DNA from: Methanolobus bombayensis
GTDB lineage: Archaea; Halobacteriota; Methanosarcinia; Methanosarcinales; Methanosarcinaceae
DNA length: 40,000 bases
NCBI RefSeq assembly: GCF_017873415.1
Contig: NZ_JAGGKD010000001.1
Location: forward strand, 403,973 to 443,972
Reading direction: 5' to 3'
Shown here: one piece after another, positions 16,120 through 33,515 of the stretch
Numbering within the stretch: the stretch's first letter is position 1
Layout: the number at the start of each line of letters is the position of its first letter
The notes under the pieces: model-generated
Databases searched by the model: none
What the model saw: only the letters and a program-made list of their open reading frames with translations
Told to the model about the DNA's origin: nothing
Position numbers and translations under genes: made by a program

Positions 16120-16294
16120 CCTGTTACCTCTGTTTAATGCAAAATTTTATGTTTTGTTCAATTTTTTTATTACTTATTGTTCTATGTATGTATATGTTCT
16201 GAAGTAAAAATAAATAGTTAATCTACATAATCTATAGTTATTCCTGTATTCTATATAATAAACATATAAATACTTAACATTCATTTTTATTAAT

Positions 16295-17479
16295 ATGTCA
16301 GAGCATTCGAATCTCTCCGAGAAGCGTATGACTTTTCTGATTTTTGTTTGTGGAGAAGGACTTGGACACACCGGGAGATGCATTTCCCTTGCATCCGAGC
16401 TACAAAATTCCGGTCACAATGTTTTCATTGGAGCTTATGGATATTCCCGGAAGTTAATTGAAGAATCAGGTTACAGTGTCGAGGAAATTCCCCAGGAGCT
16501 CAGACTCAGTGGTAAAAAAGGTTCTCTTGATCTGAAAAGTTCCATAGTTTCAACTGCCAGGACTATTTCAATCAGTAATCTGAGTTCGGTAAGAAAGCTT
16601 GTGGAGAAAACAAAACCTGATTTTGTAATTTCTGATGGATATTATAATGGTATAATTGCTGCACAACACAAAAAAGTTCCTGTATCTATTATAGTGAACC
16701 AGTCAAGTATGCAGGACTTTTTCAAAAACAAGGGTTTTTTAATAGGCATTGCAGGTTCCGTTGTCAGAAAATTCTATACATGGATATACAAAAAAGTGGA
16801 CATTATTTTCGTTCCGGACTTTAAACCTCCATTCACTATATGTGCTTCAAACCTCTCTTTTCCTGAAAATGTGAAGGACAAAATAGAATTCAGTGGTCCG
16901 GTCCTGAGAAAAAAGTATGATGAAGTTGTCCCTATTGATGGATTGAAGCGACCACATGTGCTTTGCAGCATAGGCGGTTTCGGTTATCGTCTTCAGATAT
17001 TTAAAAAGCTGCTGGAAGCAGCAAAAATGGACTCCAATATCAATTATACTCTCATAGGTGGTCCTGATCTGGATTATAGTCTTCTTGAAGATGTTCCTGA
17101 AAATGTGGAAGTTCGCCGTCTGATCCCTGATCCTTTCCCATATTACAGGTCAGTGGATTTAGTGATCTGCACAGGCGGCCATGGTACAATTACGGAATCG
17201 CTCAGTTATGGTCTTCCTGTAATATCTTTCCCGGACCACTCTCATAATGAACAGGAGAACAATGCTCAGTTCATTGAAGATAATGAATATGGCAGACGTT
17301 TGTCTTATTCAGTAACACCTGGGGAACTGTTACAGGTAATTAAAACTCTTATTAATGATGAAAGATACAGATCGAATGCATCAGTATTAAAAGAGCAGGC
17401 AGTGCTGAGCTATGGTCCTGAATACATAAGAAAAAGACTGGTAGCTTATTCGTCCTCAGTTTCCCGCTCAATTTGCTGA
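16295..17479 (+). CDS. Glycosyltransferase, MJ1255/TIGR00661-like (paralogue of 13847-14977)
   Basis: The 394-aa product contains MTFLIFVCGEGLGHTGRCISLA (internal ATG at 16328) and GGHGTITESLSYGLPVISFP...EQENNA. It is collinear with the other glycosyltransferase along its whole length. Confidence 0.8.
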   Translation: MSEHSNLSEKRMTFLIFVCGEGLGHTGRCISLASELQNSGHNVFIGAYGYSRKLIEESGYSVEEIPQELRLSGKKGSLDLKSSIVSTARTISISNLSSVRKLVEKTKPDFVISDGYYNGIIAAQHKKVPVSIIVNQSSMQDFFKNKGFLIGIAGSVVRKFYTWIYKKVDIIFVPDFKPPFTICASNLSFPENVKDKIEFSGPVLRKKYDEVVPIDGLKRPHVLCSIGGFGYRLQIFKKLLEAAKMDSNINYTLIGGPDLDYSLLEDVPENVEVRRLIPDPFPYYRSVDLVICTGGHGTITESLSYGLPVISFPDHSHNEQENNAQFIEDNEYGRRLSYSVTPGELLQVIKTLINDERYRSNASVLKEQAVLSYGPEYIRKRLVAYSSSVSRSIC

Positions 17480-18130
17480 AAGATTTCTCATTAACAATCT
17501 GATGAATCTGAACAATTCTGCGTGATCATGCAGAACTATGTCGGCATGTTCAAGTTCTTTTCTGCTGAGATCAGTAGGCAAACCCACTGTAAATATCCCG
17601 GCATTTTTTGCAGATTCAACACCAAGTATTGCATTTTCCACTACTATGCAATCATTTTTTTCCATTCCAAGCATTTCAACTGCTTTATTATATGGTTCAG
17701 GTTCAGGTTTTCCTTTCTCAGTATCATCACCACTGACTATCGCATCAAATATTCCCGGGAAATATTTCTCCATCATTATATCCACAATCTTTCTGTCGGA
17801 ACCTGAAACAACAGCGAGTCTGAATCTTTCCTTGATCTCTCTGAGGAAACCATCCACATCATCGAACAGAGTGACGCTATCCCTGTCAAATAGCTCATGT
17901 TTTCTTGCAGGAACATCAGATAGCAATTCTTCCATATCAATGGAATTGTTTCCATGGATTTCCACAATTTTTCTCACAATCCCTGCATCATTCTCGCCTT
18001 CAAGGGCAAATATATCTCTTTCGTCGATCTCTATTCCAGTCTCCATAAAAGCATCTTTCCATGCTTTTGCATGCAGGTGCATAGAATCTATCAGCACCCC
18101 GTCCATATCAAATATCAGAGCTTCGATCAC
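17468..18130 (-). CDS. HAD-superfamily hydrolase (beta-phosphoglucomutase/phosphatase-like)
   Basis: The 220-aa product has HAD motif I LIFDMDGVLIDS, motif II VVSGS, and motif III/IV K...VVENAILGVESAKNAG. Its 3' end overlaps the convergent glycosyltransferase gene by 12 nt. Confidence 0.85.
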   Translation of the reverse strand: MIEALIFDMDGVLIDSMHLHAKAWKDAFMETGIEIDERDIFALEGENDAGIVRKIVEIHGNNSIDMEELLSDVPARKHELFDRDSVTLFDDVDGFLREIKERFRLAVVSGSDRKIVDIMMEKYFPGIFDAIVSGDDTEKGKPEPEPYNKAVEMLGMEKNDCIVVENAILGVESAKNAGIFTVGLPTDLSRKELEHADIVLHDHAELFRFIRLLMRNLSAN

Positions 18131-18253
18131 AACTGGAAATCTACATGTGTATATATCTAGTTAATCTAAGGTTCAATCATAGATTATAGAATCTATATAT
18201 TTGTGAAAAATGGAACCACAATACTCTTTAGACTTCCAGAGTAATCTATCTTT

Positions 18254-18838
18254 ATGGATAAGGCAGGAGTGGTTTTTGCTTTATTAACAGTATTTACTGT
18301 CATGCTTGGTTCATGGTTTTTTGCAGGGGTGCATGTTTCAATGACAACGGAAGAGGTTGAATACAGAGTAATGTATGAATTAGAGGAAGATGTTGAGGTC
18401 AGGAAGTATGATGAATTAACTGTTATTTCCACATCAGCAAATAATCAGAACGATGCTTTCTCAGTACTTGCATCTTATATTTTCGGCAATAATGCAGGAA
18501 AGAAGAAAATCGATATGACATCTCCGGTAATCACATCAGAGAGTGATAATGTTGTTAATATGTCGTTTGTGTTACCTGCTGAGTACAATATTGATAATGC
18601 ACCAGATACTGAGAATCCGGAAATATCGATTCAGGCAATTCCTGCAAGAAAAGTGGCTGTGATAAGATTCTCAGGATATGCAAAGGATGAGATCATTGAA
18701 AAAAAGCGTTCAGTTCTCAGTTCACAACTTGCTGATAATGGTATTGTAACTACAGGTGATTTTTTCCTGATGCAGTATAATCCTCCGTGGGTTCCCCCTA
18801 CTCTTATGCGGAACGAAGTGGCTATAGAGGTGGAATAA
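18254..18838 (+). CDS. SOUL haem-binding family protein
   Basis: The 194-aa product has an N-terminal TM segment. It then follows the SOUL pattern: YEVRKYDE, FSVLASYIFGNN, IDMTSPV, MSFVLP, VAVIRFSG, YNPPW..RNEV. Confidence 0.7.
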   Translation: MDKAGVVFALLTVFTVMLGSWFFAGVHVSMTTEEVEYRVMYELEEDVEVRKYDELTVISTSANNQNDAFSVLASYIFGNNAGKKKIDMTSPVITSESDNVVNMSFVLPAEYNIDNAPDTENPEISIQAIPARKVAVIRFSGYAKDEIIEKKRSVLSSQLADNGIVTTGDFFLMQYNPPWVPPTLMRNEVAIEVE

Positions 18839-20217
18839 TGGCAAAAAAATACGGATTATCTTTATTTATATTCAGACGTGATCTCCGGGTGGATGATAAC
18901 ACTGCTTTGAACATTGCAATGGAAAACTCTGATGAGGTAATTCCATGTTTTATATTTGATCCAAGACTTGCAGATGAGAAGCGAAAAAATTTCAATCACA
19001 ATGCTTTCCATTTCCTGCTGGAATGTCTTGATGACCTTAAACTACAGCTGGATTCAAAATACGGCAAACTGTTCTTTTTCTCTGGCCTTCCTGAAAACAT
19101 CATATCAGATTTGAAAAAGAAACATGAAATAGATGCTGTATTTTTCAACAAGGATTATACACCTTTTAGCAAAAAACGAGATTCTACAATCCTGGAATCA
19201 TGTGAGAGTTCAGGAATTGATTTTGTAAGTTACCATGATGCTTTGCTACATGAGCCCGGTAAAGTGCTTACTAATGAAGGAAAAAGCTATTCCGTGTTCT
19301 CTCAGTTCTTCAAAAAAGCTTCAAAAAGAGATATACCTTTGCCTGAGATGCAGGAAGGAGGTAACTTTTATTCCGGAGATCTGGATCTAGCCCTGATTGA
19401 ATTTTCTGATCTTTCAATAGACAGGAATCCTTCTCTTTTCGCAAAAGGTGGCAGAACTAACGCTCTTTCAATTCTTCAGGATATTAATGAGTTCAGAAAT
19501 TATGATAATGAACGTGACTATCCATCAATAAAAAGTACAACGGGACTTTCTGCTCATAATAAATTAGGTACTGTCTCAATAAGAGAGTTCTATCATTATG
19601 TTAGAAATGAACTTGATGAAGGTCACACTCTAATAAATGAACTTCACTGGCGGGATTTCTTCACTCATATTGCTGTTGCACATCCTTATGTTTTCAAGGG
19701 TGCTTTCAAGAGGAAATTCGATTCACTTTCATGGTCAGATGATAAAAAGCTCTTTGATGCATGGTGTAAAGGACAAACCGGCTTTCCGATTGTTGATGCA
19801 GGTATGAGGGAACTGAACACTACTGGATACATGCATAATCGTGTAAGAATGATAGTTGCATCCTTCCTCGTAAAGGACCTTCACATTGACTGGAAATGGG
19901 GTGAGCGTTATTTTGCCAGCAAGCTTGTGGATTATGATCCATGCGTGAACAACGGTAACTGGCAGTGGGCTGCATCAACTGGTGCGGATTCACAACCATA
20001 CTTCCGTATATTCAATCCGTGGCTGCAACAGAAGAAGTTCGATCCTGATTGTGCTTATATTAAAAAGTGGATTCCTGAGCTTTCAGAAGTTGAACCAAAG
20101 GCAATCCATTCTCTTGAAAAAGGTCAGCAGTTGCTTGGGGTTGATTATCCTCAGACAATTATCAGTCATAAGGATGAAAGAGAGAAGGCTTTGACAATGT
20201 TCAAATCAATAAGCTAA
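18838..20217 (+). CDS. phr: Deoxyribodipyrimidine photolyase (class I CPD photolyase/cryptochrome family)
   Basis: The product has LFIFRRDLRVDDNTAL, TGFPIVDAGMRELNTTGYMHNRVRMIVASFL, and NNGNWQWAASTGADSQPYFRIFNP. I place the start at ATG 18838, which overlaps the SOUL stop as TAATG. The track ORF extends to an upstream alternative start at 18787. Confidence 0.9.
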   Translation: MAKKYGLSLFIFRRDLRVDDNTALNIAMENSDEVIPCFIFDPRLADEKRKNFNHNAFHFLLECLDDLKLQLDSKYGKLFFFSGLPENIISDLKKKHEIDAVFFNKDYTPFSKKRDSTILESCESSGIDFVSYHDALLHEPGKVLTNEGKSYSVFSQFFKKASKRDIPLPEMQEGGNFYSGDLDLALIEFSDLSIDRNPSLFAKGGRTNALSILQDINEFRNYDNERDYPSIKSTTGLSAHNKLGTVSIREFYHYVRNELDEGHTLINELHWRDFFTHIAVAHPYVFKGAFKRKFDSLSWSDDKKLFDAWCKGQTGFPIVDAGMRELNTTGYMHNRVRMIVASFLVKDLHIDWKWGERYFASKLVDYDPCVNNGNWQWAASTGADSQPYFRIFNPWLQQKKFDPDCAYIKKWIPELSEVEPKAIHSLEKGQQLLGVDYPQTIISHKDEREKALTMFKSIS

Positions 20218-20284
20218 CTTTTTGCATTCTATCGAGTCCGCAATATTAATAAATAAAGGATATATTTATCCACTACTTCTTTTT

Positions 20285-20327
20285 GCGGGGGTTGCCCAGC
20301 CTGGCCAAAGGCGCAGGGCTTAGGACC
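20285..20327 (+). pseudogene. tRNA-Leu 5' fragment (acceptor 5' strand, D-arm, 5' anticodon stem and loop) with a duplicated upstream region
   Basis: The fragment GCGGGGGTTGCCCAGCCTGGCCAAAGGCGCAGGGCTTAGGACC matches the first 43 nt of the intact tRNA-Leu at 20423 with 3 substitutions. Downstream there is no matching 3' anticodon-stem strand, no T-arm consensus and no acceptor 3' strand. Confidence 0.65.
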
Positions 20328-20422
20328 ATATTCATAGGGCTTCATAGCATTTCTATGAAAAATAGATATCTCATTGCGTAATATTAATATGTGAACAATA
20401 TATTTAATGACTACTCTTTTAT

Positions 20423-20507
20423 GCGGGGGTTGCCCAGCTTGGCCAAAGGCGATGGGCTTAGGACCCATTCTCGTAGGAGTCCGTGAGTTCGAATCTCACC
20501 TCCCGCA
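20423..20507 (+). tRNA. tRNA-Leu (anticodon UAG), long variable arm, no encoded CCA; casposon integration target
   Basis: The sequence is GCGGGGGTTGCCCAGCTTGGCCAAAGGCGATGGGCTTAGGACCCATTCTCGTAGGAGTCCGTGAGTTCGAATCTCACCTCCCGCA. The anticodon stem ATGGG pairs with CCCAT and the loop is CT-TAG-GA. The T-arm is GTGAG-TTCGAAT-CTCAC and the acceptor GCGGGGG pairs with CTCCCGC. Confidence 0.85.
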
Positions 20508-20517
20508 TCATTTACCT
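20504..20517. repeat. Target-site duplication copy 1 (CGCATCATTTACCT)
   Basis: This 14-mer is identical to those at 29500-29513 and 38033-38046. It covers the last 4 nt of tRNA-Leu plus 10 nt downstream. The shared string is 16 nt if the two preceding C residues are counted. Confidence 0.85.
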
Positions 20518-20556
20518 GGGATATATACAAGGCGAAAAAAGTGTACGCTTTTGCAA
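20518..20556. repeat. Casposon 1 left terminal inverted repeat
   Basis: GGGATATATACAAGGCGAAAAAAGTGTACGCTTTTGCAA matches the reverse complement of 29461-29499 (GGGATATATACAAGGCGAAAAAAGTGTACGCTTTTGTAA) with one mismatch. Confidence 0.9.
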
Positions 20557-20730
20557 GCATCCCACATAACTATATTATAGAGTTATCAAAGAAAATATTT
20601 TATTTGCATAAATCAGAAGTACAACTCACAGTTTTCTAATATATTCATCTGCTTCGAAATACAATAATTCCACATATGACAAATACAGAAGGAATAAGTC
20701 TATAAATTTAAATACTTCTCAAGCAATTCT

Positions 20731-21366
20731 TTGATGAATAAAATGTTTAATATCAAAAAGGTTACTTCACATATCTTTAATGCAGTAATTCAGGGTTTAA
20801 TATTTGGACTTACTGGGACAATATTAATTTTTGCAATAATATTCATAGCTATTTCACTGTTTCCTACACTCAAAATGTTTGTGCCCTTTACTACTGAAAA
20901 CATGGAGTTATTAAATGTTTCTCTTACGGTTGTTTTTGTATTTGTAACTAGTATTTACGTTTATTTTACATATCAAATTGTGGAACAGTCTTCTATTGAT
21001 CGAAAGATTTCTTTTACTGAAAAAAAACTTGTAAACTTCTATTACCCATTAGAAGATTTCATGAAATTTTCTGTCAAAGCCGTGGGAGATGAACCAAATG
21101 AAAGAGAATTGAGGCGAGATTCAGGTCTTGACACGGTAGAAAAAAGAAATTCCAATCCTATTTATCGAGATATTGTAAAAAACAAATATCTTGCTGACAA
21201 TGAAACCAGAGCCATTTTAGATTCTTTTTTAGACATTTTATCACAGAACAGCAGGTCAAAAAAACCCGAGCATTTATCTGTTTATGATAATTTAAACGCT
21301 TTAGTAAGTTTGAAAATAAAATCTTCACTTGAAGAACTCAATTCATTACTAAATGAGAAAAAATAA
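20731..21366 (+). CDS. Hypothetical membrane-anchored protein (casposon 1 left-arm cargo)
   Basis: The 211-aa product has two N-terminal TM segments and then a charged helical domain. It has no counterpart in casposon 2. The track start is TTG 20731, with an ATG at 20734. Confidence 0.5.
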   Translation: MMNKMFNIKKVTSHIFNAVIQGLIFGLTGTILIFAIIFIAISLFPTLKMFVPFTTENMELLNVSLTVVFVFVTSIYVYFTYQIVEQSSIDRKISFTEKKLVNFYYPLEDFMKFSVKAVGDEPNERELRRDSGLDTVEKRNSNPIYRDIVKNKYLADNETRAILDSFLDILSQNSRSKKPEHLSVYDNLNALVSLKIKSSLEELNSLLNEKK

Positions 21367-21446
21367 TTTCTACACTTAAAGTTAAAGGGGTAATTAGCTC
21401 ATACTTTATTTGTCAAACAATACTTGCAATTATTTTCAAATTACCT

Positions 21447-22649
21447 TTAATATCCATCCCACATCTCCAATCTTTCCTTAACATGAGCATTCACACTAAA
21501 CGGTTTATCCCCTTTTGCATTCTTCTTCATGTAGTGTAATGTACCCTTAGAGAATCCCATTTTCTTCCATTCGGTATAGCCAATAGCAAGAATCTTCTTT
21601 CTAAGAATATCAGTGTCATCCCTCTTCCCAACATAAGCAGGCTTACTAAAATCAATCATTTTTCTATTACCTGTGAGATGTTGAGCTAATTCTCTACCTT
21701 TCAACAACAGGACACTACCCCAAGTAGTATTCTTTTTCCTGTACTCAACTTTACCATTCATCACAGAATTAAACTCAGCAGTGAGCTTCTTTGCTCCTGA
21801 AGGCTTTAGCCTAAGTGAATAACTCTCTGTCCTGATGAAGTCCTTATCCTCCATTGCTTCTTTTTCAATAAGATTAACAACCGCAAGATCAACAAGGAAT
21901 CTAAAAGGCTCTTGGAAATCATAAGCTAAACTATGCTTGCTTGGATTCATTTCATGCAAAAAACCAACACGTGAATCAAGACCTACTGAATTAATAATTC
22001 GTAAACATTCAGATTCAAGTAAAGAATATCCATAATTGAGCATAACATTGGTTTTATCTCCTGCTCCCATTGGACGCCTGTACTTGTCAATTCTTGCTTT
22101 AAAATCATATTCAATAGGAATGACTTTGTTAAACTCATTCCAATACTTCCAAGCAATACCGCCTTCAATACCCATTAATTCCCTGATGGATTTTACATTT
22201 TTGATTTTTCCTTTATCGGTGGTAAAATCATAATCAACTTCGGAGTATCTTTGTTTAAGATAATCAAGCACAGCTTCAGATTTAGATATTTTAGCTTCAA
22301 TGAATTTCTTAGCTATCTTTAATCTAGTTTCCTCATTCTCAAAAGCGTGATATTGAGCAAACTTAATCTTTACATTTGCACTTTCAGGTGGAAGCATTGT
22401 TGTCAATAATTTGCCATCCCAATTAAGTATGGTAACCTGTACATTGTGTTTAACAAGCCATCTAATAGCCTCAATACTGATGTTGCCACTTTTACCATAA
22501 ATTACAATGCTGTCAATATCCATTCTTTTGGGTGAGAATGTGTATTTTTCAGGCTCTTCATTTGCGGAAAATCTGCCATCCTTGACATGTAGTTTAGCAT
22601 TGCTGACACGCATGTCTATTCCATGACCATTTAGTAAGAGCATCTTCAT
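21447..22649 (-). CDS. cas1: Cas1-family integrase (casposase)
   Basis: The 400-aa product starts MKMLLLNGHGIDMRV. Its Cas1 catalytic-region motifs are MGIEGG and VGFLHEMNPSKHSLAYDFQEPFRFLVD, and it has a C-terminal HTH (GFSKGTLHYMKKNA). No cas2 or cas4 lies adjacent. The start overlaps the stop of the upstream wHTH gene (TAATG). Confidence 0.9.
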   Translation of the reverse strand: MKMLLLNGHGIDMRVSNAKLHVKDGRFSANEEPEKYTFSPKRMDIDSIVIYGKSGNISIEAIRWLVKHNVQVTILNWDGKLLTTMLPPESANVKIKFAQYHAFENEETRLKIAKKFIEAKISKSEAVLDYLKQRYSEVDYDFTTDKGKIKNVKSIRELMGIEGGIAWKYWNEFNKVIPIEYDFKARIDKYRRPMGAGDKTNVMLNYGYSLLESECLRIINSVGLDSRVGFLHEMNPSKHSLAYDFQEPFRFLVDLAVVNLIEKEAMEDKDFIRTESYSLRLKPSGAKKLTAEFNSVMNGKVEYRKKNTTWGSVLLLKGRELAQHLTGNRKMIDFSKPAYVGKRDDTDILRKKILAIGYTEWKKMGFSKGTLHYMKKNAKGDKPFSVNAHVKERLEMWDGY

Positions 22650-23521
22650 TAGAATTTCTCCACAGCATCCTTATTCTCTTTAAAATGATCGTCATGCATT
22701 CCAAGATGAGTCATAGCTATGACTCTTACTTGAGCAATGAACTGAGCAGGCTCTTCTTTGCCCTCTAATCTTAACTTTTCCTCAAAATCATAGAGTTCTT
22801 CCCTGTGATCCTCTATTACAAAGGCTGTATAGTTAGAATTATAATCAAGAAGGTCATGAAGGTTGTCTAACTCTTCAGCATCCTTTTTTAGTCTGTCAAT
22901 AATAGCACTATCGTTATAGTATCCTAGTAAAAAGATAAAATGAGTTCTAAGGTTCTTGTGTCCATGTGGTAATGGCTTAGGGTACTTATTCAATAGGCTT
23001 CTAAGCATCTTAATAGCTTCTTGTCTGTTATAGGGTTCTATATCCTTTTTATCTATGTATGTATAGACTATTCTTAGGATATTGTCTATAAGGTCTATGT
23101 CTTCTGTGTCTAATTGGGCTATAAGTATGTCTAATTGGAGAGGATTGAGTAGACAGTGTTTCTCATATCTTTCCAGTTCTTTAAGTGCCATTTTTTGTAT
23201 TATAGGATTATTAGTGGATATTTTACCTATAATCGTATCTATATGTCTTCTTATTTCTTCTGTTTTTTTAAGAGTAAAAAAGCTAGCTCTACCATCCTCT
23301 ACTCTTATTCCTGCTTTTTTAAGAGTATCGCCTTTAAGCTTAGATACTATACCTCTATCCACCATACTGTCAAGCTTTCGATTGATACTCTTGTCACTAT
23401 ATCCACTATCCCCTCTATGCTTATTTTTGAGGGTTTGTATGAGTTGCGACCTTCTAACATAGCCTTGATTGGATAATATTCGTCTGACTTCTTGGTCAAA
23501 GTCTAACCCTTTTTTATACAT
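22649..23521 (-). CDS. Winged-helix DNA-binding protein with a helical-repeat C-terminal domain (casposon core gene)
   Basis: The 290-aa product has an N-terminal wHTH-like region (VRRSQLIQTL...SINRKLDSMVDRGIVSKL). It is collinear with the gene at 31762-32634 in casposon 2 and translationally coupled to cas1. Confidence 0.7.
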   Translation of the reverse strand: MYKKGLDFDQEVRRILSNQGYVRRSQLIQTLKNKHRGDSGYSDKSINRKLDSMVDRGIVSKLKGDTLKKAGIRVEDGRASFFTLKKTEEIRRHIDTIIGKISTNNPIIQKMALKELERYEKHCLLNPLQLDILIAQLDTEDIDLIDNILRIVYTYIDKKDIEPYNRQEAIKMLRSLLNKYPKPLPHGHKNLRTHFIFLLGYYNDSAIIDRLKKDAEELDNLHDLLDYNSNYTAFVIEDHREELYDFEEKLRLEGKEEPAQFIAQVRVIAMTHLGMHDDHFKENKDAVEKF

Positions 23522-23627
23522 ACTTATACCCTAGTTGATATAAGAACTATATCATATTTATACCTAATCTTATACTCACTTTCTGTACAGATATGATGAG
23601 GTACATAGTGTTTTATTGTGACTTATT
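23522..23627. promoter_or_regulatory. Divergent control region of the casposon 1 core (between the wHTH-cas1 operon and the RHH-polB operon)
   Basis: This 106-bp AT-rich intergenic region has TATA-like elements (tatatcatatttatacc). About 93% of its first ~88 nt are identical to the equivalent region of casposon 2 (32635-32723), a higher identity than I see in the flanking coding sequence. Confidence 0.5.
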
Positions 23628-23768
23628 ATGTCCGGTAAAGCAAGAATGATAGTTAGCCTTTCTTCTTACCTTAAGGAGAAAGTGGAATCGTACTCTGAGA
23701 AATATGGCTGTTCTCAAGCTGAAGTGGTGAGAATGGCTCTTATAAGGTATCTGGAGGATGAAGAATGA
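23628..23768 (+). CDS. Ribbon-helix-helix (CopG/MetJ-like) small DNA-binding protein
   Basis: Absent from the track (46 aa). My translation is MSGKARMIVSLSSYLKEKVESYSEKYGCSQAEVVRMALIRYLEDEE, which has the beta-strand, helix, helix pattern of RHH proteins. Its stop overlaps the next start (ATGA). Confidence 0.7.
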   Translation: MSGKARMIVSLSSYLKEKVESYSEKYGCSQAEVVRMALIRYLEDEE

Positions 23769-24409
23769 GCAGACCTGAATTTACCAGAGAATACAGGACT
23801 TATGGAGAATGGCTCAAAGCAATGCCAAGAGATACGAGGTATGCAAAGGAGATCATCAGGAAACACCAGATGTTTCCAGATAAGAGCCTGAATCAATTGA
23901 GAAAATTGAAACTATCTGATGCATCTCTTGCATCTAGGTCATTTGATGCATTATCACCCGTACAGCGAGATATGAGAAAAAGAGCTGTTCTTGCAGTAAA
24001 TGACATGAGAAAGGGTAAATCCCTTACCACAGCGGCAAAAGAGCAGGGAATCAGTGTACAGGACGCTCTCAAGCATCTTGGAAATGCAGTGTATAAGAAA
24101 AATGGACGTTGGGTTGCTACAAAGAGCGATGCCATTGAAAGAGGCAGATGGTTCTATTCTAACGGTAAAAGAGTTAGTGTTGTTGTCAAAAATTCAAAGG
24201 ATGCATCACTTGTCAGTAAGTATCTGAATGCTGTCAGGACTGCATTAAGGACAGGAGATGAAGCAGCACTCAAGCCATTCAAGAATGTTACAATAGAGGG
24301 TGCTGATGGGAAGGATTACCCACTTGAGACAGACCTTGAGAAGCTGTATGAGGCAAATGAACAAATCGAGGACTCTGAGTTCTTGCCAATATACGATGAT
24401 AGGAACTAA
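23765..24409 (+). CDS. Conserved casposon protein of unknown function (possible HTH)
   Basis: The 214-aa product is collinear with the gene at 32874-33512. Both start MSRP.F.REYRTYGEW.KA and end ETDL.KLYE..E.IE..EF. It contains an HTH-like segment, SLTTAAKEQGISVQDALKHLG. Confidence 0.6.
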   Translation: MSRPEFTREYRTYGEWLKAMPRDTRYAKEIIRKHQMFPDKSLNQLRKLKLSDASLASRSFDALSPVQRDMRKRAVLAVNDMRKGKSLTTAAKEQGISVQDALKHLGNAVYKKNGRWVATKSDAIERGRWFYSNGKRVSVVVKNSKDASLVSKYLNAVRTALRTGDEAALKPFKNVTIEGADGKDYPLETDLEKLYEANEQIEDSEFLPIYDDRN

Positions 24410-24437
24410 ACAACCTTAATTCAAGCAGGGGATAGGT

Positions 24438-24794
24438 TTGTCCAACGAAGATTTTATTTTGCAGATAAAACAGCAAGCTAAGAGCGAACAGCTTGTTAAA
24501 AATGGTATCTGCGAAATTTGTGGAGAGACTAATCCCTATGCTTTGAAAATCTACGAGAATCATCACATTTCCACAAGAGGCTTTTCGGATGAAACAAGAG
24601 TGCTTTGTCTGAACTGTCATGCTGCTGTAACTCATTTTCAAAATGAACTCCCTCCTAAGTTTAGATCAAGCCAATTACCGCTAGAGGAGAGACTTGACTA
24701 TGTTCTGCTTACACATGCGGCACTCAGGAAAAGAATGGATGAGATTGAGATTGATTTGTTAAGAAAGAGATATGAGGGAATTAAAAATGAATAA
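24438..24794 (+). CDS. HNH endonuclease
   Basis: The 118-aa product has CEICGE...YENHHIS...LCLNCHAAVT, the HNH/zinc-finger pattern. It uses a TTG start. A homologue sits at the same position in casposon 2. Confidence 0.75.
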   Translation: MSNEDFILQIKQQAKSEQLVKNGICEICGETNPYALKIYENHHISTRGFSDETRVLCLNCHAAVTHFQNELPPKFRSSQLPLEERLDYVLLTHAALRKRMDEIEIDLLRKRYEGIKNE

Positions 24795-27483
24795 TGTTGC
24801 ATTGAGGACATTCTCAACAAAAGAGGAAGAGATGAAGAAACAATTTCCTTACACGTATAAACAAGAGATACCTGATTTTTCCAGAGTCTTGACATTCGAT
24901 ACTGAAACAACAGCAGATGAGTTCCTTAACCTGAAGTTTGGCTCGTTCATGGTACATGAGAATGACGTGTATCAATATGCAGGCTTGTTCTGGGATGACA
25001 GACATGTATCAAAAAAAGAGTATAAAGTGCTGAAAGCGTATGCAGAGAAGTACAACATACGCTTATTCTCTCTTGAAGAGTTTATCAAGATATTTTATTT
25101 GGAAATCTACGAAAGAAAAACGCTCTGTATTGGTTATAACATCAACTTCGACCTGTCACGGATAATTTTAGATTATGGGCATGGCAGGTATTCAGGCAAG
25201 GATGGATTCTCCTTCAAACTAACTGAAGATACAACCTATCCACGTCTTCGCATCAAGCACCTGACAGGCAGATCATACAACGTTGAGTTTACAAGAGCAA
25301 AGGGTAAGTACAGGAAAGAGAGGACGTTCAAAGGTCATTTTCTGGATGTAGCCAATCTTGCATGTACATTGACCGACAATAAATCTCTCACACTTGAGAA
25401 GGCTTGTGAGATATTTGATACTCCAATAAAGAAGAAATCAATAAGCAAACATGGAGTAATAACTCCAAACTATATTGATTACAACATTACAGACGTAAGA
25501 TCAACTTATGAGCTATTCAAAAAAGTAAGCCAGGAGTATGAAAGGTATCAGTTGGCGATTCCAATGACTGATATTTACTCTGCTGCTTCTCTTGGAAAGC
25601 AGGCACTTAATCAGTTCAACATTGCACCTTTTATGCAGCATAATAATGATTTTCCTCCTGAACTTATCGGTAATCAGATGAGTGGATACTATGGAGGAAG
25701 ATGTGAGTGCAAGATAAGGAGAACACCTACTAAGGTTACAGTTCTGGATTTCTTCAGTATGTACCCAACTGTAACCCTCCTTCTTGGTCTTTGGGATTTT
25801 GTGATTGCAGATAAAATCCATCATGTTGATGACACAGAGAACGTCAGGCAATTTATTGAAGAATTTACGTTTGAGGATGCTCTTAACCGTGATATTTGGG
25901 AGAAGCTAAACGTTCTTGTTGAAATAGAGCCTGATGATGATATTCTACCTGTTAGAACAAAGTATGCAGGAGAGGATGGAACGTTAAACATCGGTATTAA
26001 TCACATAACAATGAATGAATCGTTGTATTACTTCTTGCCTGACATTCTTGCCTCAAAGCTGCTTACAGGTAAAACTCCCAAGATAAAGAGAGCTATCAGG
26101 TTTATTCCTGAAGGCATACAGGAAAGTCTCACAGAATCAGAAGTCTATGGAGTTCATGTGAATCCAAAAGAGGATAATCTCATCAAAGTTCTCGTTGAAC
26201 GTAGGCAGGAGATTAAGAATGAGATGAAGAAGGTATCAAAGGACTCTCATGACTATGATGTTCTGGATGCACAACAGAGAGCCTTGAAGATTCTTAATAA
26301 TTCCACAACATACGGGATTTATATTGAGATGCATCCAAAGGAAGAGGAAAAACTGAGAGTATTTAGCAACGTTGAGTTTGATTCTAAAGGAAAATATGAA
26401 CAGCCTGGGAAATACTTCAATGCCATCATAGGAGCAAATATTACAGCAGGAGCAAGGCTATTGCTTGCTATTGCAGAGAAGTTTGTGATGGATAAAGGTG
26501 AGGTTCATGCATACATGGATACAGATTCTATTTTTGTTCCTCCGCATCTTGCAGACGAATTGAGTCATCTTTTTGATTCTCTGAATCCTTATGATTTTGA
26601 TAAGCCAATCCTTGAGATTGAGGACGGAATGGAAGACATTTGGTTCTATGGTATCAGTTCCAAGAGATATTGTTTGTTCAGGGAAGAAGGAAATAAGATC
26701 ATCATTCCTGAAGGAAAGAAGCTGTTCTATAAACTGCATGGATTAGGACACATAACAAATCCATTCAAAAGGGAATTGGAGGAAGGAGACCAATGGCACA
26801 AGAAGTTATGGGAGGATATTCTCAGAGTCCATTTTCATCCTGAAGAGCTTCCTGATGTGTTGGAGAAATATGAGAACTATGCTGTAATTTCTAAACTTGC
26901 AGTTTCAACAGGAACAATATTGAGACGATTTGAGAGAATGAACGAAGGGAAGCCATTTGATAAACAAATCAAGCCTTTCAACTTCATGCTTGTTGGGAGT
27001 GGTGCAACAATCAATGAGGATGGGGAGAAGGTCAAGCCTGTTGCTCCTTACAACAATAATCCACAAGTTGCTATTGAGAATGAGTTCATAGACTACAATA
27101 CAGGAGATACGCTTCAAGGAAGGGAATACTGGAAGCCATTAAGTGATGTATTCCTTGATTACATAAATCATCCTGAAGCTAAATTTGAAGGAGATATAGG
27201 AGTACTGCAAAGGAGACATCTTACTCCTACTGGGTGCGTGTATATTGGTAAGGAAGCAAATAAGGTTGAAATGCAGGAATTAGAGAGCAATGAAGTTGAG
27301 ATATACCACGATATAGAGAAGATAAGGGAATTTGTTCTAGGTTTAAAGCCTGATAAAGCTAAAGAGATTGGAATTGAGCATAGGAGCGCATTAAAGCAAT
27401 TGAAGGATAGGGTAAGAGAAGGAGACTTTAATATGAATACTAAATTGATGAGGATGGTAATAGGAAAAATTTATAGTAGATAA
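24772..27483 (+). CDS. polB: Family B DNA polymerase (casposon PolB)
   Basis: The exonuclease motifs are ExoI FDTETT, ExoII YNINFDLSRI and ExoIII YNITDV. The polymerase motifs are A LDFFSMYPT, B KILNNSTTYG, C YMDTDSIF and KxY SSKRY. By homology with the casposon 2 copy, the likely true start is ATG 24787 (MNNVALR...). Confidence 0.9.
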   Translation: MRELKMNNVALRTFSTKEEEMKKQFPYTYKQEIPDFSRVLTFDTETTADEFLNLKFGSFMVHENDVYQYAGLFWDDRHVSKKEYKVLKAYAEKYNIRLFSLEEFIKIFYLEIYERKTLCIGYNINFDLSRIILDYGHGRYSGKDGFSFKLTEDTTYPRLRIKHLTGRSYNVEFTRAKGKYRKERTFKGHFLDVANLACTLTDNKSLTLEKACEIFDTPIKKKSISKHGVITPNYIDYNITDVRSTYELFKKVSQEYERYQLAIPMTDIYSAASLGKQALNQFNIAPFMQHNNDFPPELIGNQMSGYYGGRCECKIRRTPTKVTVLDFFSMYPTVTLLLGLWDFVIADKIHHVDDTENVRQFIEEFTFEDALNRDIWEKLNVLVEIEPDDDILPVRTKYAGEDGTLNIGINHITMNESLYYFLPDILASKLLTGKTPKIKRAIRFIPEGIQESLTESEVYGVHVNPKEDNLIKVLVERRQEIKNEMKKVSKDSHDYDVLDAQQRALKILNNSTTYGIYIEMHPKEEEKLRVFSNVEFDSKGKYEQPGKYFNAIIGANITAGARLLLAIAEKFVMDKGEVHAYMDTDSIFVPPHLADELSHLFDSLNPYDFDKPILEIEDGMEDIWFYGISSKRYCLFREEGNKIIIPEGKKLFYKLHGLGHITNPFKRELEEGDQWHKKLWEDILRVHFHPEELPDVLEKYENYAVISKLAVSTGTILRRFERMNEGKPFDKQIKPFNFMLVGSGATINEDGEKVKPVAPYNNNPQVAIENEFIDYNTGDTLQGREYWKPLSDVFLDYINHPEAKFEGDIGVLQRRHLTPTGCVYIGKEANKVEMQELESNEVEIYHDIEKIREFVLGLKPDKAKEIGIEHRSALKQLKDRVREGDFNMNTKLMRMVIGKIYSR

Positions 27484-27500
27484 AATCTTTAAAAAGAGTT

Positions 27501-28388
27501 GTGACTGGTAAATCTATCAAGGAAATAATTGAAGATCATAAAAAAATCATGTCTTCTCTAAACATCAATAAAACTCTAAATAACTTAAGTAGTTCATTTA
27601 TTCTACCTTCTTCTTTCAATAATGGTAGGCAAAAGTCTTTAAAAAAAGTAATAACCGAGATAAATGAATATGAAAAAGCTGGTAACAACTATTCTGACGA
27701 AATTTGCCACACATGTAATAAAAAAATAAATAGTCATCTATTTTACTCTTTAAGAAAATATGAAGAGGTACAATTAGATGATGATTTGGAATATAGAGTA
27801 GAGGATCAATTAGAAGACAAACTAATTGAATGTAATGATTTTTGTTCAGGCTCTTGCCTTGAAGCATTTTCTGACAAACATGAAGAGACAATTGAGGAAT
27901 ATGAACTATATGAGGTCAGAAGATGTTCTTGTTATTATGACTGTCTTGATCTTGAAAACATAAGAGGGATTTGTGAAAGAGAAGAACGTTTAGATTATGA
28001 ATCTAACCTTTTCCCATCACTTCCATTACATAATTTTTGTGAACCAGCTGACGCAGGCATAATCAAAGCATCAATAAATATTAAAAAGCAATTAGACGAA
28101 GGATCAAAGCAAAATTCAGATCATTTTAAGATAACAGCAGTAATGACTATATTAGTAATATTGTTAACTATCGCCAATATTTTCCTTGTAATTGATACAA
28201 ATTATGAACATCAGCTAGATAGTATAGATGCAAAACTTGGTGCGATTAACAACAGTCTCTCATCTCTTAATAATCAAGCCAATGACATTAATTCTGAACT
28301 AGATCCAAGCACTCTTTTAGTCAGTAGTAATTTAGAAAACTCTCTAGATAATACCAATAAGACAGTTGAATTCTCAAATAAAAGTTGA
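27501..28388 (+). CDS. Hypothetical Cys-rich protein with a C-terminal TM segment (casposon 1 right-arm cargo)
   Basis: The 295-aa product uses a GTG start. It has several Cys clusters (CHTCNKK, CNDFCSGSC, CSCYYDC), one TM segment (ITAVMTILVILLTIANIFLVI) and an N/S-rich tail. It has no counterpart in casposon 2. Confidence 0.5.
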   Translation: MTGKSIKEIIEDHKKIMSSLNINKTLNNLSSSFILPSSFNNGRQKSLKKVITEINEYEKAGNNYSDEICHTCNKKINSHLFYSLRKYEEVQLDDDLEYRVEDQLEDKLIECNDFCSGSCLEAFSDKHEETIEEYELYEVRRCSCYYDCLDLENIRGICEREERLDYESNLFPSLPLHNFCEPADAGIIKASINIKKQLDEGSKQNSDHFKITAVMTILVILLTIANIFLVIDTNYEHQLDSIDAKLGAINNSLSSLNNQANDINSELDPSTLLVSSNLENSLDNTNKTVEFSNKS

Positions 28389-28399
28389 AATATTCAAAT

Positions 28400-28504
28400 A
28401 TGGAAAAAATAATAACATTTATTGTATGCATGATTATATTAGGCATTGCACTCATTGGAGTTTTGCTGTTTTTAGCCTGGTTTGATCCTACTTTATCTAC
28501 GTGA
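28400..28504 (+). CDS. Possible 34-aa hydrophobic peptide
   Basis: Absent from the track. My translation is MEKIITFIVCMIILGIALIGVLLFLAWFDPTLST, a single TM segment. The only evidence is the ORF and its hydrophobicity. Confidence 0.3.
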   Translation: MEKIITFIVCMIILGIALIGVLLFLAWFDPTLST

Positions 28505-28522
28505 GCATAGTGGTTTAGGTGA

Positions 28523-28918
28523 TTATGTCTTTTTAGGAAGCATAAGAAATGGTAGAAAAACTGCTAGGATAATAAGAAGAATGTAAAGTAAAAAGATATA
28601 CATTTTTGTGTAGGATTGTGTTATTTGTATCGAATCTGATGTAAAGATATAATACGAAGAAAAGATTCCAAATAGAACATATAAACCAATTGTTTCAAAA
28701 TAAACTTTGAAAGGAAGACTCTTTTTAGATGCTTTAATATAACTGTTTTTTTGATTTAAGGCTTGAGAAGCTTGGTTACTAGCATATTGGATTTTTGCCA
28801 CAGAATCATAATATTCTTCTATATTTGTTTTGAACGTAAAAAATTTATCGTTATCTGTGTAGCTCAAATTATCAATATCTTCTTGACTCAAATTTGTTAT
28901 TTGATTATTTTCAAGCAT
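28523..28918 (-). CDS. Small protein with a soluble N-terminal helix region and a C-terminal 2-TM hairpin (casposon 1 cargo)
   Basis: The 131-aa product is a paralogue of the adjacent gene. Shared pattern: ...SNQASQALNQKNSYIKASKKSLPF versus ...ESQASSFKQEKEKISYERADKKYIPF. Both then have two TM segments and end in LPKK. Confidence 0.55.
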   Translation of the reverse strand: MLENNQITNLSQEDIDNLSYTDNDKFFTFKTNIEEYYDSVAKIQYASNQASQALNQKNSYIKASKKSLPFKVYFETIGLYVLFGIFSSYYIFTSDSIQITQSYTKMYIFLLYILLIILAVFLPFLMLPKKT

Positions 28919-28929
28919 ATATTATCCCT

Positions 28930-29340
28930 CTATTTTTTAGGGAGAATACGTAAAGGTGTGAGCAACGCAACAACAAAAATTAACGTTATAAAAGAAGCAA
29001 TTAAAGCATAATACTTTAAATTTGTCTCCTCAATTAAAGGTAGCCTAAATATGATAGCAAATAAAAAAACACTTCCACTTATTGCTGTTGCTGCTACTCT
29101 CCAACAATATGACAAGAAAGGTATATATTTTTTATCAGCTCTCTCGTATGATATTTTTTCTTTTTCCTGTTTAAAAGAAGAAGCCTGACTCTCAAATACT
29201 CTTGACAATGACTGGTTATATGATATTTGTTTTTGGATAAAATCGTCAAAATTTCGCCTTTCATCAGCTTTCAATTTCATATAATCTTCAGCTTTGTAAT
29301 TAGTTGCCAACTCTACCGTTAATTGAGTCATATAATCCAC
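28930..29340 (-). CDS. Small protein with a soluble N-terminal helix region and a C-terminal 2-TM hairpin (casposon 1 cargo, paralogue)
   Basis: The 136-aa product has the same architecture as 28523-28918 and lies in tandem with it, 11 nt apart. Confidence 0.55.
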   Translation of the reverse strand: MDYMTQLTVELATNYKAEDYMKLKADERRNFDDFIQKQISYNQSLSRVFESQASSFKQEKEKISYERADKKYIPFLSYCWRVAATAISGSVFLFAIIFRLPLIEETNLKYYALIASFITLIFVVALLTPLRILPKK

Positions 29341-29460
29341 TCCTACTATTATATTATACCAAGAATTTATTATAAAAAGATGCCTATTTTGTTTTGAATG
29401 ACTAATAAAAATATAAAAGTCGGTATTACAAAGTTATGAATATCTGATTTTGTATGAACA

Positions 29461-29499
29461 TTACAAAAGCGTACACTTTTTTCGCCTTGTATATATCCC
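29461..29499. repeat. Casposon 1 right terminal inverted repeat
   Basis: ttacaaaagcgtacacttttttcgccttgtatatatccc is the reverse complement of the left TIR with one mismatch. Confidence 0.9.
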
Positions 29500-29513
29500 C
29501 GCATCATTTACCT
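29500..29513. repeat. Target-site duplication copy 2 (CGCATCATTTACCT), shared junction between the two casposons
   Basis: This copy is identical to the other two. It lies exactly between the right TIR of casposon 1 and the left TIR of casposon 2. Confidence 0.85.
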
Positions 29514-29543
29514 GGGTAATAGGTAACGCCAAAAAACCGAACT
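29514..29543. repeat. Casposon 2 left terminal inverted repeat
   Basis: GGGTAATAGGTAACGCCAAAAAACCGAACT matches the reverse complement of 38003-38032 (GGGTAATAGGTAAGCCCAAAAAACCGAACT) with two adjacent mismatches (CG/GC). Confidence 0.85.
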
Positions 29544-29669
29544 ATGTATGAATATTTCAAACAGTAGCTTTTTTCAAACTACAAAAAAAGAATCAAAAAT
29601 AATCTTTGTTTGTTAGACAATTTTTAATCCCACTAAAGATATAAAGGATAACTTATAAGTAAATCTTAC

Positions 29670-30551
29670 ATGGTTAATGACAATCCTAATATTTTTTACA
29701 AATATCGAAGTGTTAATGAAAATACAATTAAAATGCTAGAAAACCAGGAATTGTATTTTAGTGGTGCTTCAGATTTCAATGATCCTTTTGATTCAAAAGC
29801 TGACTTGATTTGGAGGGGCAATAAAGATGATTGGATGAGCTTTTTATATAGAATGGGTATTAAGAACCATGCACAACGCGAACAATCCATCAAAGAAAAC
29901 CTTAAAAATGGGTCTTTAAGAAATAGAAAAGGAGAATATTTATTAGACCCAAATAGAACTGCTTTTAAGGTACTTAAAGGGAATATTCAACTTAATAATA
30001 AACCTGATTTTCCGAGAGCTTGTTGTTTTAGCGAAGACAACGATAGTATCTTAATGTGGAGTCACTATGCAGATGAGCATAAAGGAATATGCTTATGCTT
30101 TAAATCTAAAATAATAGAGACGGGAGATTTTTTATATTTAGATTCTAATCCTGATCCCTACCTACTTTTTCCAATAACATATCAAGAAGACATGCCTGAA
30201 CAAGTAAACATGTTGAGCAGTTATGAACCTGAAGAATTGGTATCTTTTTTATGCACCAAACATTTTGATTGGAAGTATGAAAAAGAGCGTCGTTTGATAA
30301 TGTGGCCTATTGATTTCAATACTCATGGGCAATATACTAAAAAATTTAGAAAAGAAGATTTAGAAGGAATTATTTTTGGGTTGAATACCCCTACTGACCA
30401 TATAAAAATGATTAAGACGATTATAGACGAACAATACCTTAAAGAAGGTTTTAAAGTTAATTTCTATAAGGCTCAGGAATTGCAAAAAAAATATGGTATT
30501 TATATTAAGCCAATAGACGATTTAGATAAGCACATAGAAAAATACTGTTAG
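29670..30551 (+). CDS. DUF2971-family protein (casposon 2 left-arm cargo)
   Basis: The 293-aa product has IFYKYRSVNENTIKMLENQELYFSGASDFNDPFDS and CFSEDNDSILMWSHYADEHKGICLCF. Both match the DUF2971 signature as I remember it. Confidence 0.65.
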   Translation: MVNDNPNIFYKYRSVNENTIKMLENQELYFSGASDFNDPFDSKADLIWRGNKDDWMSFLYRMGIKNHAQREQSIKENLKNGSLRNRKGEYLLDPNRTAFKVLKGNIQLNNKPDFPRACCFSEDNDSILMWSHYADEHKGICLCFKSKIIETGDFLYLDSNPDPYLLFPITYQEDMPEQVNMLSSYEPEELVSFLCTKHFDWKYEKERRLIMWPIDFNTHGQYTKKFRKEDLEGIIFGLNTPTDHIKMIKTIIDEQYLKEGFKVNFYKAQELQKKYGIYIKPIDDLDKHIEKYC

Positions 30552-30559
30552 AAAACACA

Positions 30560-31762: not shown

Positions 31763-32634
31763 TAAAATCCCTCCACATCAGCATTATTCTGAACAAAAGG
31801 ATCATCATACATTCCAAGATGAATCATGGCTCTAACTCTTACCTGAGAAATGAACTGAGCAGACTCTTCTTTTCCCTCTAGTCTTAATTTTTCCTCAAAT
31901 TCATAGAGGTCTTCCCTATGTTCCTCTATTACATGTGCTGTATAGTTAGAGTCATAATCTTCCATTTCATGAAGGTTATCTAATTCCTCTGAATCCTTTT
32001 TTAGCCAATCAATAACAGCACTATCATTGTAGTGTCCTAGTAAATAGATAAAATGAGTTCTAAGGTTCTTATGTCTATGAGGTAATGGCTTAGGATATTT
32101 AGACAATAAACCTCTAAGCATCTTAATAGCTTCTGGTTTGTTATAGGGTTCTATATTCTTTATGTCTATATAGGTATAGACTATTCTTAGGATATGGTCT
32201 ATAAGGTCTATATCCTCTGTGTCTAGTTGGGCTATAAGTATGTCTAATTGACTAGGGTTAAGAGTATATCGTTTCTTATATTTTTCAAGCTCTTTAAGAG
32301 CCATTTTTTGTATAATAGGATTATTCGAGGCTATTTTTCCTATAATCGTATCTATATGTCTCTTTATTTCCTCTGTTTTTTTAAGAGTAAAAAAGCTAGC
32401 TCTACCATCCTCTACTCTTATCCCTGCTTTTTTAAGAGCATCCCCTTTAAGTTTAATCACTATGCCCCTTTTTACCATACTGTCTAACTTTCGATTGATA
32501 CTCTTCTCACTATAACCACTATCTTTTTTGTGTCTGTTTTTTAGAGTTAGTATGAGTTGTGCTCTTCTAACATACCCTTGTTTTGATAATATGTCTTTAA
32601 CCTCTAGGTCAAAATTTAACCCTTTTTTATACAT
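31762..32634 (-). CDS. Winged-helix DNA-binding protein with a helical-repeat C-terminal domain (casposon core gene)
   Basis: The 290-aa product is a homologue of the gene at 22649-23521. Its stop overlaps the cas1 start. Confidence 0.7.
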   Translation of the reverse strand: MYKKGLNFDLEVKDILSKQGYVRRAQLILTLKNRHKKDSGYSEKSINRKLDSMVKRGIVIKLKGDALKKAGIRVEDGRASFFTLKKTEEIKRHIDTIIGKIASNNPIIQKMALKELEKYKKRYTLNPSQLDILIAQLDTEDIDLIDHILRIVYTYIDIKNIEPYNKPEAIKMLRGLLSKYPKPLPHRHKNLRTHFIYLLGHYNDSAVIDWLKKDSEELDNLHEMEDYDSNYTAHVIEEHREDLYEFEEKLRLEGKEESAQFISQVRVRAMIHLGMYDDPFVQNNADVEGF

Positions 32635-33512: not shown

Positions 33513-33515
33513 GGA

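Follow-up and report, generated by a model that had tools for sequence, protein, structure and literature searches.

The DNA analysed here is a stretch of 40,000 nucleotides (nt) of Methanolobus bombayensis (contig NZ_JAGGKD010000001.1, positions 403,973 to 443,972 of the forward strand), which we call the window. Repeat and ARAGORN analysis of the window revealed two casposons, c1 and c2, lying in tandem at the 3' end of a tRNA-Leu(tag) gene. A first-pass annotation of the same DNA had noticed that these otherwise diverged elements share a nearly identical patch. Judged from sequence comparison, this patch is probably the regulatory core of one family-2 casposon lineage in Methanolobus and Methanococcoides. 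The core would consist of a divergent promoter/operator of ~106 bp and the gene of a CopG-like ribbon-helix-helix (RHH) protein, and its near-identity would come from purifying selection, acting on the cis-regulatory DNA and the small DNA-binding protein, together with inter-element recombination. c1 and c2 are distinct mosaic elements that carry one regulatory type, and their similarity in the patch would be typical of any two members of this type.

The two casposons have the same layout. In the leftward operon, an HTH-HEAT gene (HTH, helix-turn-helix) is followed by cas1; the end of HTH-HEAT overlaps the start of cas1 by one base (22649), which is consistent with an operon. A divergent intergenic region (IGR) of ~106 bp separates it from the rightward operon, in which the RHH gene is followed by genes of 214/212 and 118/113 amino acids (aa; c1/c2) and by polB. 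The stop codon of RHH and the start codon of the following gene overlap in ATGA, with a GGAGG Shine-Dalgarno sequence in the 3' end of the RHH gene. The parts of the core region are as follows.

22649-23521, minus strand: c1 HTH-HEAT gene, 290 aa, with a winged helix at residues ~1-84 and a helical-repeat domain
31762-32634: c2 HTH-HEAT gene, 84-85% nt identity to the c1 copy
23522-23610 (c2 32635-32723): conserved core of the divergent IGR, AT-rich, with TATA-like boxes in both directions
23611-23654, plus strand: variable spacer, comprising the end of the 5' untranslated region and RHH codons 1-9, identity of c1 and c2 only ~50-56%, indel present
23628-23768, plus strand: c1 RHH gene, 46 aa, CopG-like; c2 copy at 32737-32877
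23658-23682 (c2 32767-32791), plus strand: 25-nt palindrome/hairpin CTTTCTTCTTACCTTAAGGAGAAAG inside the RHH coding sequence
23765-24409, plus strand: c1 214-aa gene; c2 counterpart at 32874-33512, 212 aa

In the proposed mechanism, the IGR would drive the HTH-HEAT-cas1 operon leftward and the RHH-214aa-118aa-polB operon rightward. The winged helix-turn-helix (wHTH) domain of HTH-HEAT may recognise the IGR core, and the RHH protein would be an autorepressor acting on TTATAC repeats.

Alignment of c1 with c2 showed that the near-identical patch is real and that its scope had been misjudged. The IGR cores, 23522-23610 and 32635-32723, differ at 6 of 89 positions, practically the ~6 of 88 reported before, and 23655-23725 is exactly the same as 32764-32834, a maximal exact run of 71 nt, again as reported. 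By chance, 2.8e-5 runs of 71 nt or longer are expected if the background identity is 79%, as in the homologous block, and 1.8e-3 if it is 85%. Change-point analysis divided the alignment into three segments: 21447-22686 with 73% identity, 22687-23896 with 85% and 23897-27483 with 53%. The 85% block contains the HTH-HEAT gene, the IGR, the RHH gene and the start of the 214-aa gene. Thus the patch is more conserved than cas1 and polB, as had been claimed, but it does not stand out as an isolated peak, being part of a 1.2-kb block in the full alignment. Over its full length, the HTH-HEAT gene matches between c1 and c2 about as well as the flagged patch does, with an identity peak of 95% at 23224-23324 and a 50-nt exact run at 23259-23308. 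The high identity does extend into the gene after RHH, although it ends at ~23896 and not at 23790, and it is interrupted by the diverged spacer at 23611-23654. This spacer occurs as discrete haplotypes shuffled among elements. The estimate that both cas1 and polB are about three quarters identical was right for cas1 (~73% nt, 70% aa) and too high for polB (~53-55% nt, 45% aa). The proportion of synonymous differences (pS) between c1 and c2 is 0.66 in cas1, 0.72 in polB and 0.67 in the C-terminal part of the 214-aa gene. It is 0.39 in HTH-HEAT, 0.64 in RHH codons 1-9 and 0.12 in the RHH body.

The intergenic core and its candidate regulators

Using the HTH-HEAT protein as bait, we collected 15 further distinct elements from genomes and metagenomes; together with c1 and c2, 17 elements were available (the further loci bear L numbers below). 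All loci with a named source organism belong to Methanolobus or Methanococcoides. A scan of viral contigs found no relatives, and a scan of metagenomes gave one extra locus only.

The IGR core contains the palindrome GATATA-N5-TATATC at 23537-23553, and TTATAC repeats lie at 23514, 23524, 23558 and 23570. Within the window, the GATATA palindrome, the TTATAC repeats and the central block of the core are present only in the two IGRs. The central block, TATATCATATTTATAC, is invariant and resembles the ATATATTTA box (TATA box) upstream of the host tRNA-Leu. It could serve as a TATA box in both directions; the positions of TATA boxes and transcription starts were judged by eye from the promoter of the host tRNA-Leu and are only approximate. 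The assignment of a promoter to the IGR is supported by analogy with the cas1-solo gene of Methanosarcina mazei. This gene is co-transcribed with the upstream MM_3250, and its AT-rich, TATA-containing promoter is bound by a wHTH regulator (PMC7465815).

We compared the divergence of the IGR core with that of the neighbouring coding DNA. Between c1 and c2, 6 of 89 positions differ in the core versus 25.5 of 61 synonymous sites in the wHTH-coding part (pS 0.42), so that divergence of the core is about six-fold lower (p=3e-7). Nine elements, c1 and c2 among them, have an IGR of type I. Their IGR cores are 83-98% identical and are more conserved than adjacent coding DNA in most pairs. The variable columns of the core are few and recurrent, and the centre of the palindrome spacer takes all four bases. 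These comparisons of sequence support the view that conservation of the patch reflects constraint on regulatory DNA. A shared regulatory hub under constraint had been one of two explanations offered in the first-pass annotation. Its first half, constraint on the IGR, is supported by the comparison between elements; its second half, the binding of regulators and cross-regulation, is a prediction.

The body of the RHH gene is heterogeneous: mean pS is 0.07 at 23655-23687 (55 pairs of elements with RHH of type A, the type of c1 and c2) and 0.44 at 23688-23762, the latter value resembling that of neighbouring genes. Third positions vary at 3 of 11 sites in the frozen part versus 21 of 25 in the rest (p=0.002). 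It turned out that the 71-nt run unites both kinds of sequence. The 25-nt palindrome lies in its first 33 nt, which hardly vary among all type-A elements. The remaining 38 nt are identical only in the tight subgroup of c1, c2, L010, L013 and L019X. Given the peptide and the codon usage of casposons, a stem equally long appeared in 0.6% of codon resamplings (p=0.006). The frozen palindrome may act as an operator or form a hairpin in the mRNA, or it may simply result from conservation of the LSxYLKEK peptide.

A structured RNA was also considered for the frozen RHH sequence, but covariation does not suffice to call one. Covariation in two predicted hairpins over 16 distinct sequences was not significant (one compensatory pair in 24; shuffles matched the score in 154 of 500 cases). 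Rfam gave no match, and the overall fold z-score was -1.5. The frozen synonymous sites over the hairpin and a codon choice that favours the stem, however, speak for a structure.

The assignment of the RHH fold is consistent across methods but stays below curated thresholds. The AlphaFold2 (AF2) model of the RHH monomer (pLDDT 93) has two helices. Its top Foldseek matches are all RHH proteins, including CopG with a TM-score of 0.70 and a root-mean-square deviation of 0.7 Å, at E>1. One source annotates the homologues as CopG/Arc/MetJ regulators. The predicted base-contacting positions R-x-[IVL]-x-[ST], aligned to R4/T6/T8 of CopG, are common to all RHH types.

For the HTH-HEAT protein, the AF2 model (pLDDT 83.6) shows helices at residues 4-19, 24-34 and 43-55 and wing strands at 59-62 and 81-84, followed by helical repeats. 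Foldseek matched it to HEAT/ARM-like repeats and to the RTP winged helix; the Pfam match to HEAT_2 is weak (E=0.0096). We assessed whether the IGR varies together with this protein. IGR identity correlates with the identity of the wHTH domain with a Spearman coefficient of 0.89 (Mantel p<=0.0005), and the coefficients for other segments are 0.46 for the HEAT domain, 0.52 for the RHH body and ~0.1 for cas1 and polB. In L003, the HEAT domain is 77% identical to that of c1 at the aa level and the wHTH domain only 32%; its recognition helix is GYSIENIQKKL as against GYSEKSINRKL, and its IGR is unalignable. L013 likewise has 77% aa identity to c1 in the HEAT domain versus 45% in the wHTH domain. 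The RHH type is combined with these in different ways: L006 has a type-I IGR with a type-B RHH, and L013 has another IGR type with a type-A RHH. Because the IGR tracks the wHTH domain and because of these swaps, the wHTH domain and the IGR core apparently move as a unit, and the RHH is exchangeable. Co-variation of the kind that marks a regulator-operator cassette is therefore found, and it is independent of the flanking modules.

Both c1 and c2 carry wHTH/IGR of type I and RHH of type A, with the recognition helices GYSDKSINRKLDSMV and GYSEKSINRKLDSMV. Since both the sites and the recognition helices are nearly identical, the regulators should act on both copies in trans. It is conceivable, although we regard this as tentative, that the exchangeable cassette of a wHTH domain and its cognate divergent IGR defines cross-regulation groups. 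Such groups would be comparable to phage immunity or plasmid incompatibility groups. In this case c1 and c2 would be one group, co-repressed and co-induced as a unit, although their replication modules are deeply diverged. The frozen RHH palindrome would serve as an extra cis site (operator or mRNA hairpin) and as a preferred crossover point.

The IGR could also be read by host factors, such as TBP/TFB on back-to-back TATA boxes or a host regulator such as the CARF-wHTH protein by which cas1-solo is activated in M. mazei, and the RHH and wHTH proteins of the element might then have a role in integration or in the choice of target. The M. mazei host protein MM_0565 does bind the promoter of MM_3250-cas1-solo, with 36-fold induction (PMC7465815), and Krupovic et al. 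proposed that conserved HTH proteins of casposons take part in target recognition and integration (PMC4046053). The resemblance of the central block to the box upstream of the host tRNA-Leu also fits host factors. However, sites of the host are not expected to switch type together with the wHTH domain of an element inside one host genus. In addition, the IGRs of co-resident elements are unrelated, both for L019X and L019Y and for L001A and L001B. We therefore consider control by host factors improbable and prefer regulators encoded by the element.

Mosaicism, gene conversion and the age of the patch

The casposon family is heavily mosaic, and breakpoints fall at the patch. They were found at the cas1/HTH-HEAT junction, at the junction of the wHTH and HEAT domains, inside the 23655-23725 run and at ~23896. 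L001A resembles c2 between the HEAT domain and 23654 and resembles c1 from there onward, starting with the RHH body, which places the switch within the 71-nt run. L010 resembles c2 on both sides and is c1-like at all six sites of the RHH 3' part (6:0 versus 7:29 in the flanks, p=3e-4). c2 and L013 share the RHH-214aa segment at 98-99%, and their flanks are 64-86% identical. The boundary at ~23896 cuts the 214-aa gene. The first ~38 codons of this gene are conserved family-wide (62-98% nt); beyond them the protein occurs in at least two types, which are only ~50% identical to each other. The break is both a recurrent recombination boundary and a module boundary.

The second explanation of the first-pass annotation was recent gene conversion between c1 and c2, which would have homogenised the IGR and the RHH gene. 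Tandem homologous copies have the opportunity for this, the family recombines often, and the pS of the RHH body is low. If conversion had occurred, the paralogues should be more alike in the flagged patch than either is to relatives elsewhere. This was not so: c1 and c2 are 93-95% identical in the patch, and matches of 96-100% exist in other genomes. Between elements of the same type from different assemblies, identity is 83-98% in the IGR core and 86-100% in the RHH body. In the IGR, c1 is 98% identical to L008, 93% to c2 and 92-93% to L001A, L006, L010 and L012; c2 is 96% identical to L001A, L008 and L019X. In the RHH body, identity is 97% for c1 and L010, 99% for c2 and L013, 100% for c2 and L019X, and 95% for c1 and c2. 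Thus the IGR and the RHH body are as conserved across genomes as they are between c1 and c2, and each copy has a closer relative elsewhere. Six differences separate c1 from c2 in the RHH 3' part. All six are common to c2 and L019X, and at least five are shared with L013, which shows that they are older than this genome. At lineage-diagnostic sites in 23611-23900 (L008/L006 versus c2/L019X), c1 has the allele of its own lineage at 20 of 23 (20:3). The diverged 44-nt stretch also interrupts the patch.

Other tandem pairs give the same answer. Two other Methanolobus genomes carry such pairs, L001A/B and L019X/Y, and the members of these pairs differ in regulatory type. In the L019 pair the regulatory regions are unrelated (39% identity in the IGR core, 61% in the RHH body). 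L001B is without an HTH-HEAT gene, and its cas1 diverges directly from a type-B RHH gene. The L001 and L019 pairs are not homogenised; co-residence, therefore, does not homogenise the elements. Recent c1-c2 conversion in the patch is thus unsupported, and we consider it highly improbable. (In their loci, L001 element B lies at 13160-20700 and L019 element Y at 1-3307; the L001 array adjoins tRNA-Leu-like sequence.)

A tract of ~120 nt of c2-lineage sequence is nevertheless present in c1, outside the flagged patch and 200-300 nt to its left.

23199-23317, minus strand (c2 ~32312-32430): c2-lineage conversion tract in the c1 coding region of the wHTH wing

Informative sites in the tract favour the c2 lineage by 19:4, whereas the flanking ratio is 2:42 (Fisher p=6.5e-11), and the c1 backbone is otherwise of the L008/L006 type. 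The tract accounts for the 95% peak and for the 50-nt exact run in HTH-HEAT. It lends something to the conversion reading. However, the best-fitting donor, c2, leads only by a small margin: it shows 11 differences, and L019X, L001A and L010 show 13 each. At 5-8% divergence, the exchange was neither clearly local nor very recent, and the donor is not fixed as c2 itself.

Near-identity in the patch may alternatively reflect recency and not constraint. One IGR/RHH allele would have swept horizontally among casposons, and the patch would be younger than the rest of each element. The close match of c2 and L013 in RHH-214aa between much less similar flanks fits such a sweep, as do the breakpoints in and beside the RHH body. 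Across the family, pS in the RHH 3' part is normal (0.44), and in the close pair L014/L015 the pS of RHH is not reduced (0.34 versus 0.20-0.32 in neighbouring segments). The lack of covariation for an RNA structure is in line with this. The IGR, though, tracks the wHTH domain, which implies co-inheritance and a similar age, and yet it exceeds the wHTH DNA in conservation in most type-I pairs. Even between elements in which 9 of 16 synonymous sites of the 3' part have changed, the first 33 nt of the RHH body are almost invariant. Variable IGR columns recur at few positions, for example in the palindrome spacer with its four bases. Taken over the whole patch, we consider a sweep unlikely and constraint on the core the preferred reading.

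Several points weigh against constraint and the regulatory assignments, and they are gathered here. A multiple-hit dispersion test on the IGR substitutions gave no separation of constraint from recency (p=0.2-0.36). For 23688-23725, low c1/c2 divergence is best explained by shared recent ancestry through inter-element recombination, which fits better than constraint because the family-wide pS of this part is normal. The tight physical linkage of the adjacent IGR and wHTH domain could partly explain their correlation, and the sample is no larger than 17 elements, several of which are close relatives of each other. Promoter and operator were assigned to the IGR by reading its sequence. As for the RHH protein, its profile scores all lie under the gathering scores (Pfam RHH_1 best E=0.0067, RHH_3 0.018, DUF6290 0.0014). 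CopG is its top PDB sequence match with a weak score (E=0.25), and the N-terminus is modelled as a helix with no strand.

The tandem array and its surroundings

The remaining features of the array are as follows (TIR, terminal inverted repeat; TSD, target site duplication).

20422-20509, plus strand: tRNA-Leu(tag), integration target, called by ARAGORN; its 3' end overlaps the first TSD copy at 20502-20517
20518-29499: casposon c1, with TIRs at 20518-20569 and 29448-29499 (52 nt, 87% complementary)
29514-38032: casposon c2, with TIRs at 29514-29543 and 38003-38032 (30 nt, 93% complementary)
21447-22649, minus strand: c1 casposase gene cas1, 400 aa (Pfam Cas_Cas1, E=1.5e-69)
30560-31762: c2 cas1
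24438-24794: c1 118-aa open reading frame, with a weak match to McrA (HNH; E=0.14) and no Pfam match
24772-27483, plus strand: c1 PolB, 903 aa (Pfam DNA_pol_B, E=9e-9)
33829-36510: c2 PolB (Pfam DNA_pol_B_2, E=4e-11)

The TSD, CCCGCATCATTTACCT, is present in three copies, at 20502-20517, 29498-29513 and 38031-38046, and the middle copy serves both c1 and c2. c1 and c2 have the features of family-2 casposons: a casposase, a family B polymerase, TIRs with a TSD, and an HTH-HEAT gene adjoining cas1. For the HNH endonuclease gene of the family, the 118-aa reading frame with its weak McrA match would be the candidate. The HTH-HEAT protein is a core gene product of this family (PMC4046053, PMC4779613). 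Tandem arrays at tRNA-Leu and the family-2 core are known from Methanosarcina, and the layout of the window agrees with them (PMC4046053, PMC4779613). Searches of PDB and Pfam with the 214-aa and 118-aa proteins gave no significant match.

Upstream of the array, an 89-nt direct repeat with 83% identity (20239-20327 and 20377-20465) covers the tRNA-Leu promoter and the 5' half of the gene. Only its second copy is called a tRNA by ARAGORN. The first copy could be a further tRNA gene that the program overlooked, or the remnant of another integrative element. Downstream, a CRISPR array at 38362-40000 begins ~316 nt beyond the final TSD of the casposons and continues past the window end. Its 37-nt repeat, GTTTCAATCCTTGTTTTAGTGGATCTTGATTTTGAAT, occurs in at least 22 exact copies, and the spacers measure 33-43 nt. 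Comparison of the spacers with the casposons and all fetched loci gave chance-level matches only, of 12-18 nt.

Damage was seen in some of the relatives. In L007, L008 and L009 (6873-8074) and in L011 (6001-8085), cas1 is split into parts of 215 and 185 aa or truncated, and in L007 polB is broken too. Even so, the relatives with broken cas1 keep an IGR core that matches that of c1 at 93-98%, and this holds for L008 and L011, which appear to be decaying. The casposon relative in L004 (Methanolobus sp. ZRKC3; 5800-10700) is rearranged: its segment from RHH to polB is inverted relative to HTH-HEAT and the cas1 fragments, and the HTH-HEAT reading frame is interrupted by stop codons. In the element of L012 (2061-2200) and L005 (1809-1950, minus strand), the RHH gene has an in-frame TAA at codon 4 (ATG ACT AGT TAA); the RHH body is nonetheless 93% identical to c1. 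Either this is a recent pseudogene, or translation begins at a downstream TTG start, which would remove the conserved beta-strand Arg.

Casposon control and known systems

Casposons are transposons thought to be ancestral to the CRISPR adaptation machinery. To our knowledge, almost nothing has been reported about how they control the expression of casposase and polymerase. The main value of the present analysis is an entry point to this regulation: it names a candidate control region of ~250 bp and two candidate regulators encoded by the element. Natural swap variants, type-I versus L003/L018-type cassettes, are potential specificity controls, by which casposon regulation becomes testable. Modular recombination at conserved junctions also matters for the classification of casposons from single Cas1 or PolB trees. 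A conserved promoter/operator with small regulators is an expected feature of a modular mobile element and is not surprising.

The papers on family-2 casposons (Krupovic et al. 2014, PMC4046053; 2016, PMC4779613) describe no conserved divergent promoter/operator and no RHH gene at this position. They likewise describe no exchange of a wHTH and IGR cassette, and mosaicism within the family is not described there at this resolution. Of the tandem copies in the tRNA-Leu arrays of Methanosarcina, one is degraded, whereas c1 and c2 both appear intact.

Another parallel is offered by the CopG/Arc/MetJ transcriptional repressors, for example CopG of plasmid pMV158 (PDB 1b01/1ea4/2cpg). The 46-aa casposon RHH aligns with it end to end (R-L-T-I-T-L-S versus R-M-I-V-S-L-S) and shares the G-x-S loop motif. 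As would suit an autorepressor, the casposon RHH gene lies directly downstream of its presumed target promoter. In contrast to CopG, the casposon protein scores below threshold, and its gene heads the replication operon of an archaeal transposon.

In M. mazei, the cas1-solo gene of MetMaz-C1 (Ulbricht et al. 2020, PMC7465815) resembles the cas1 genes of c1 and c2 in lying behind an upstream gene and in having an AT-rich, TATA-containing promoter. Its regulator MM_0565 is host-encoded and CRISPR-associated, and the likeness considered here is one of organisation.

The core also resembles the immunity modules of temperate phages and plasmids. In both, a DNA-binding domain co-varies with adjacent non-coding DNA, flanking modules reassort, and crossovers fall in conserved stretches. 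We know of no lysogeny-type switch in casposons. Since two casposons of the same type sit in tandem here, strict superinfection immunity (exclusion) is unlikely.

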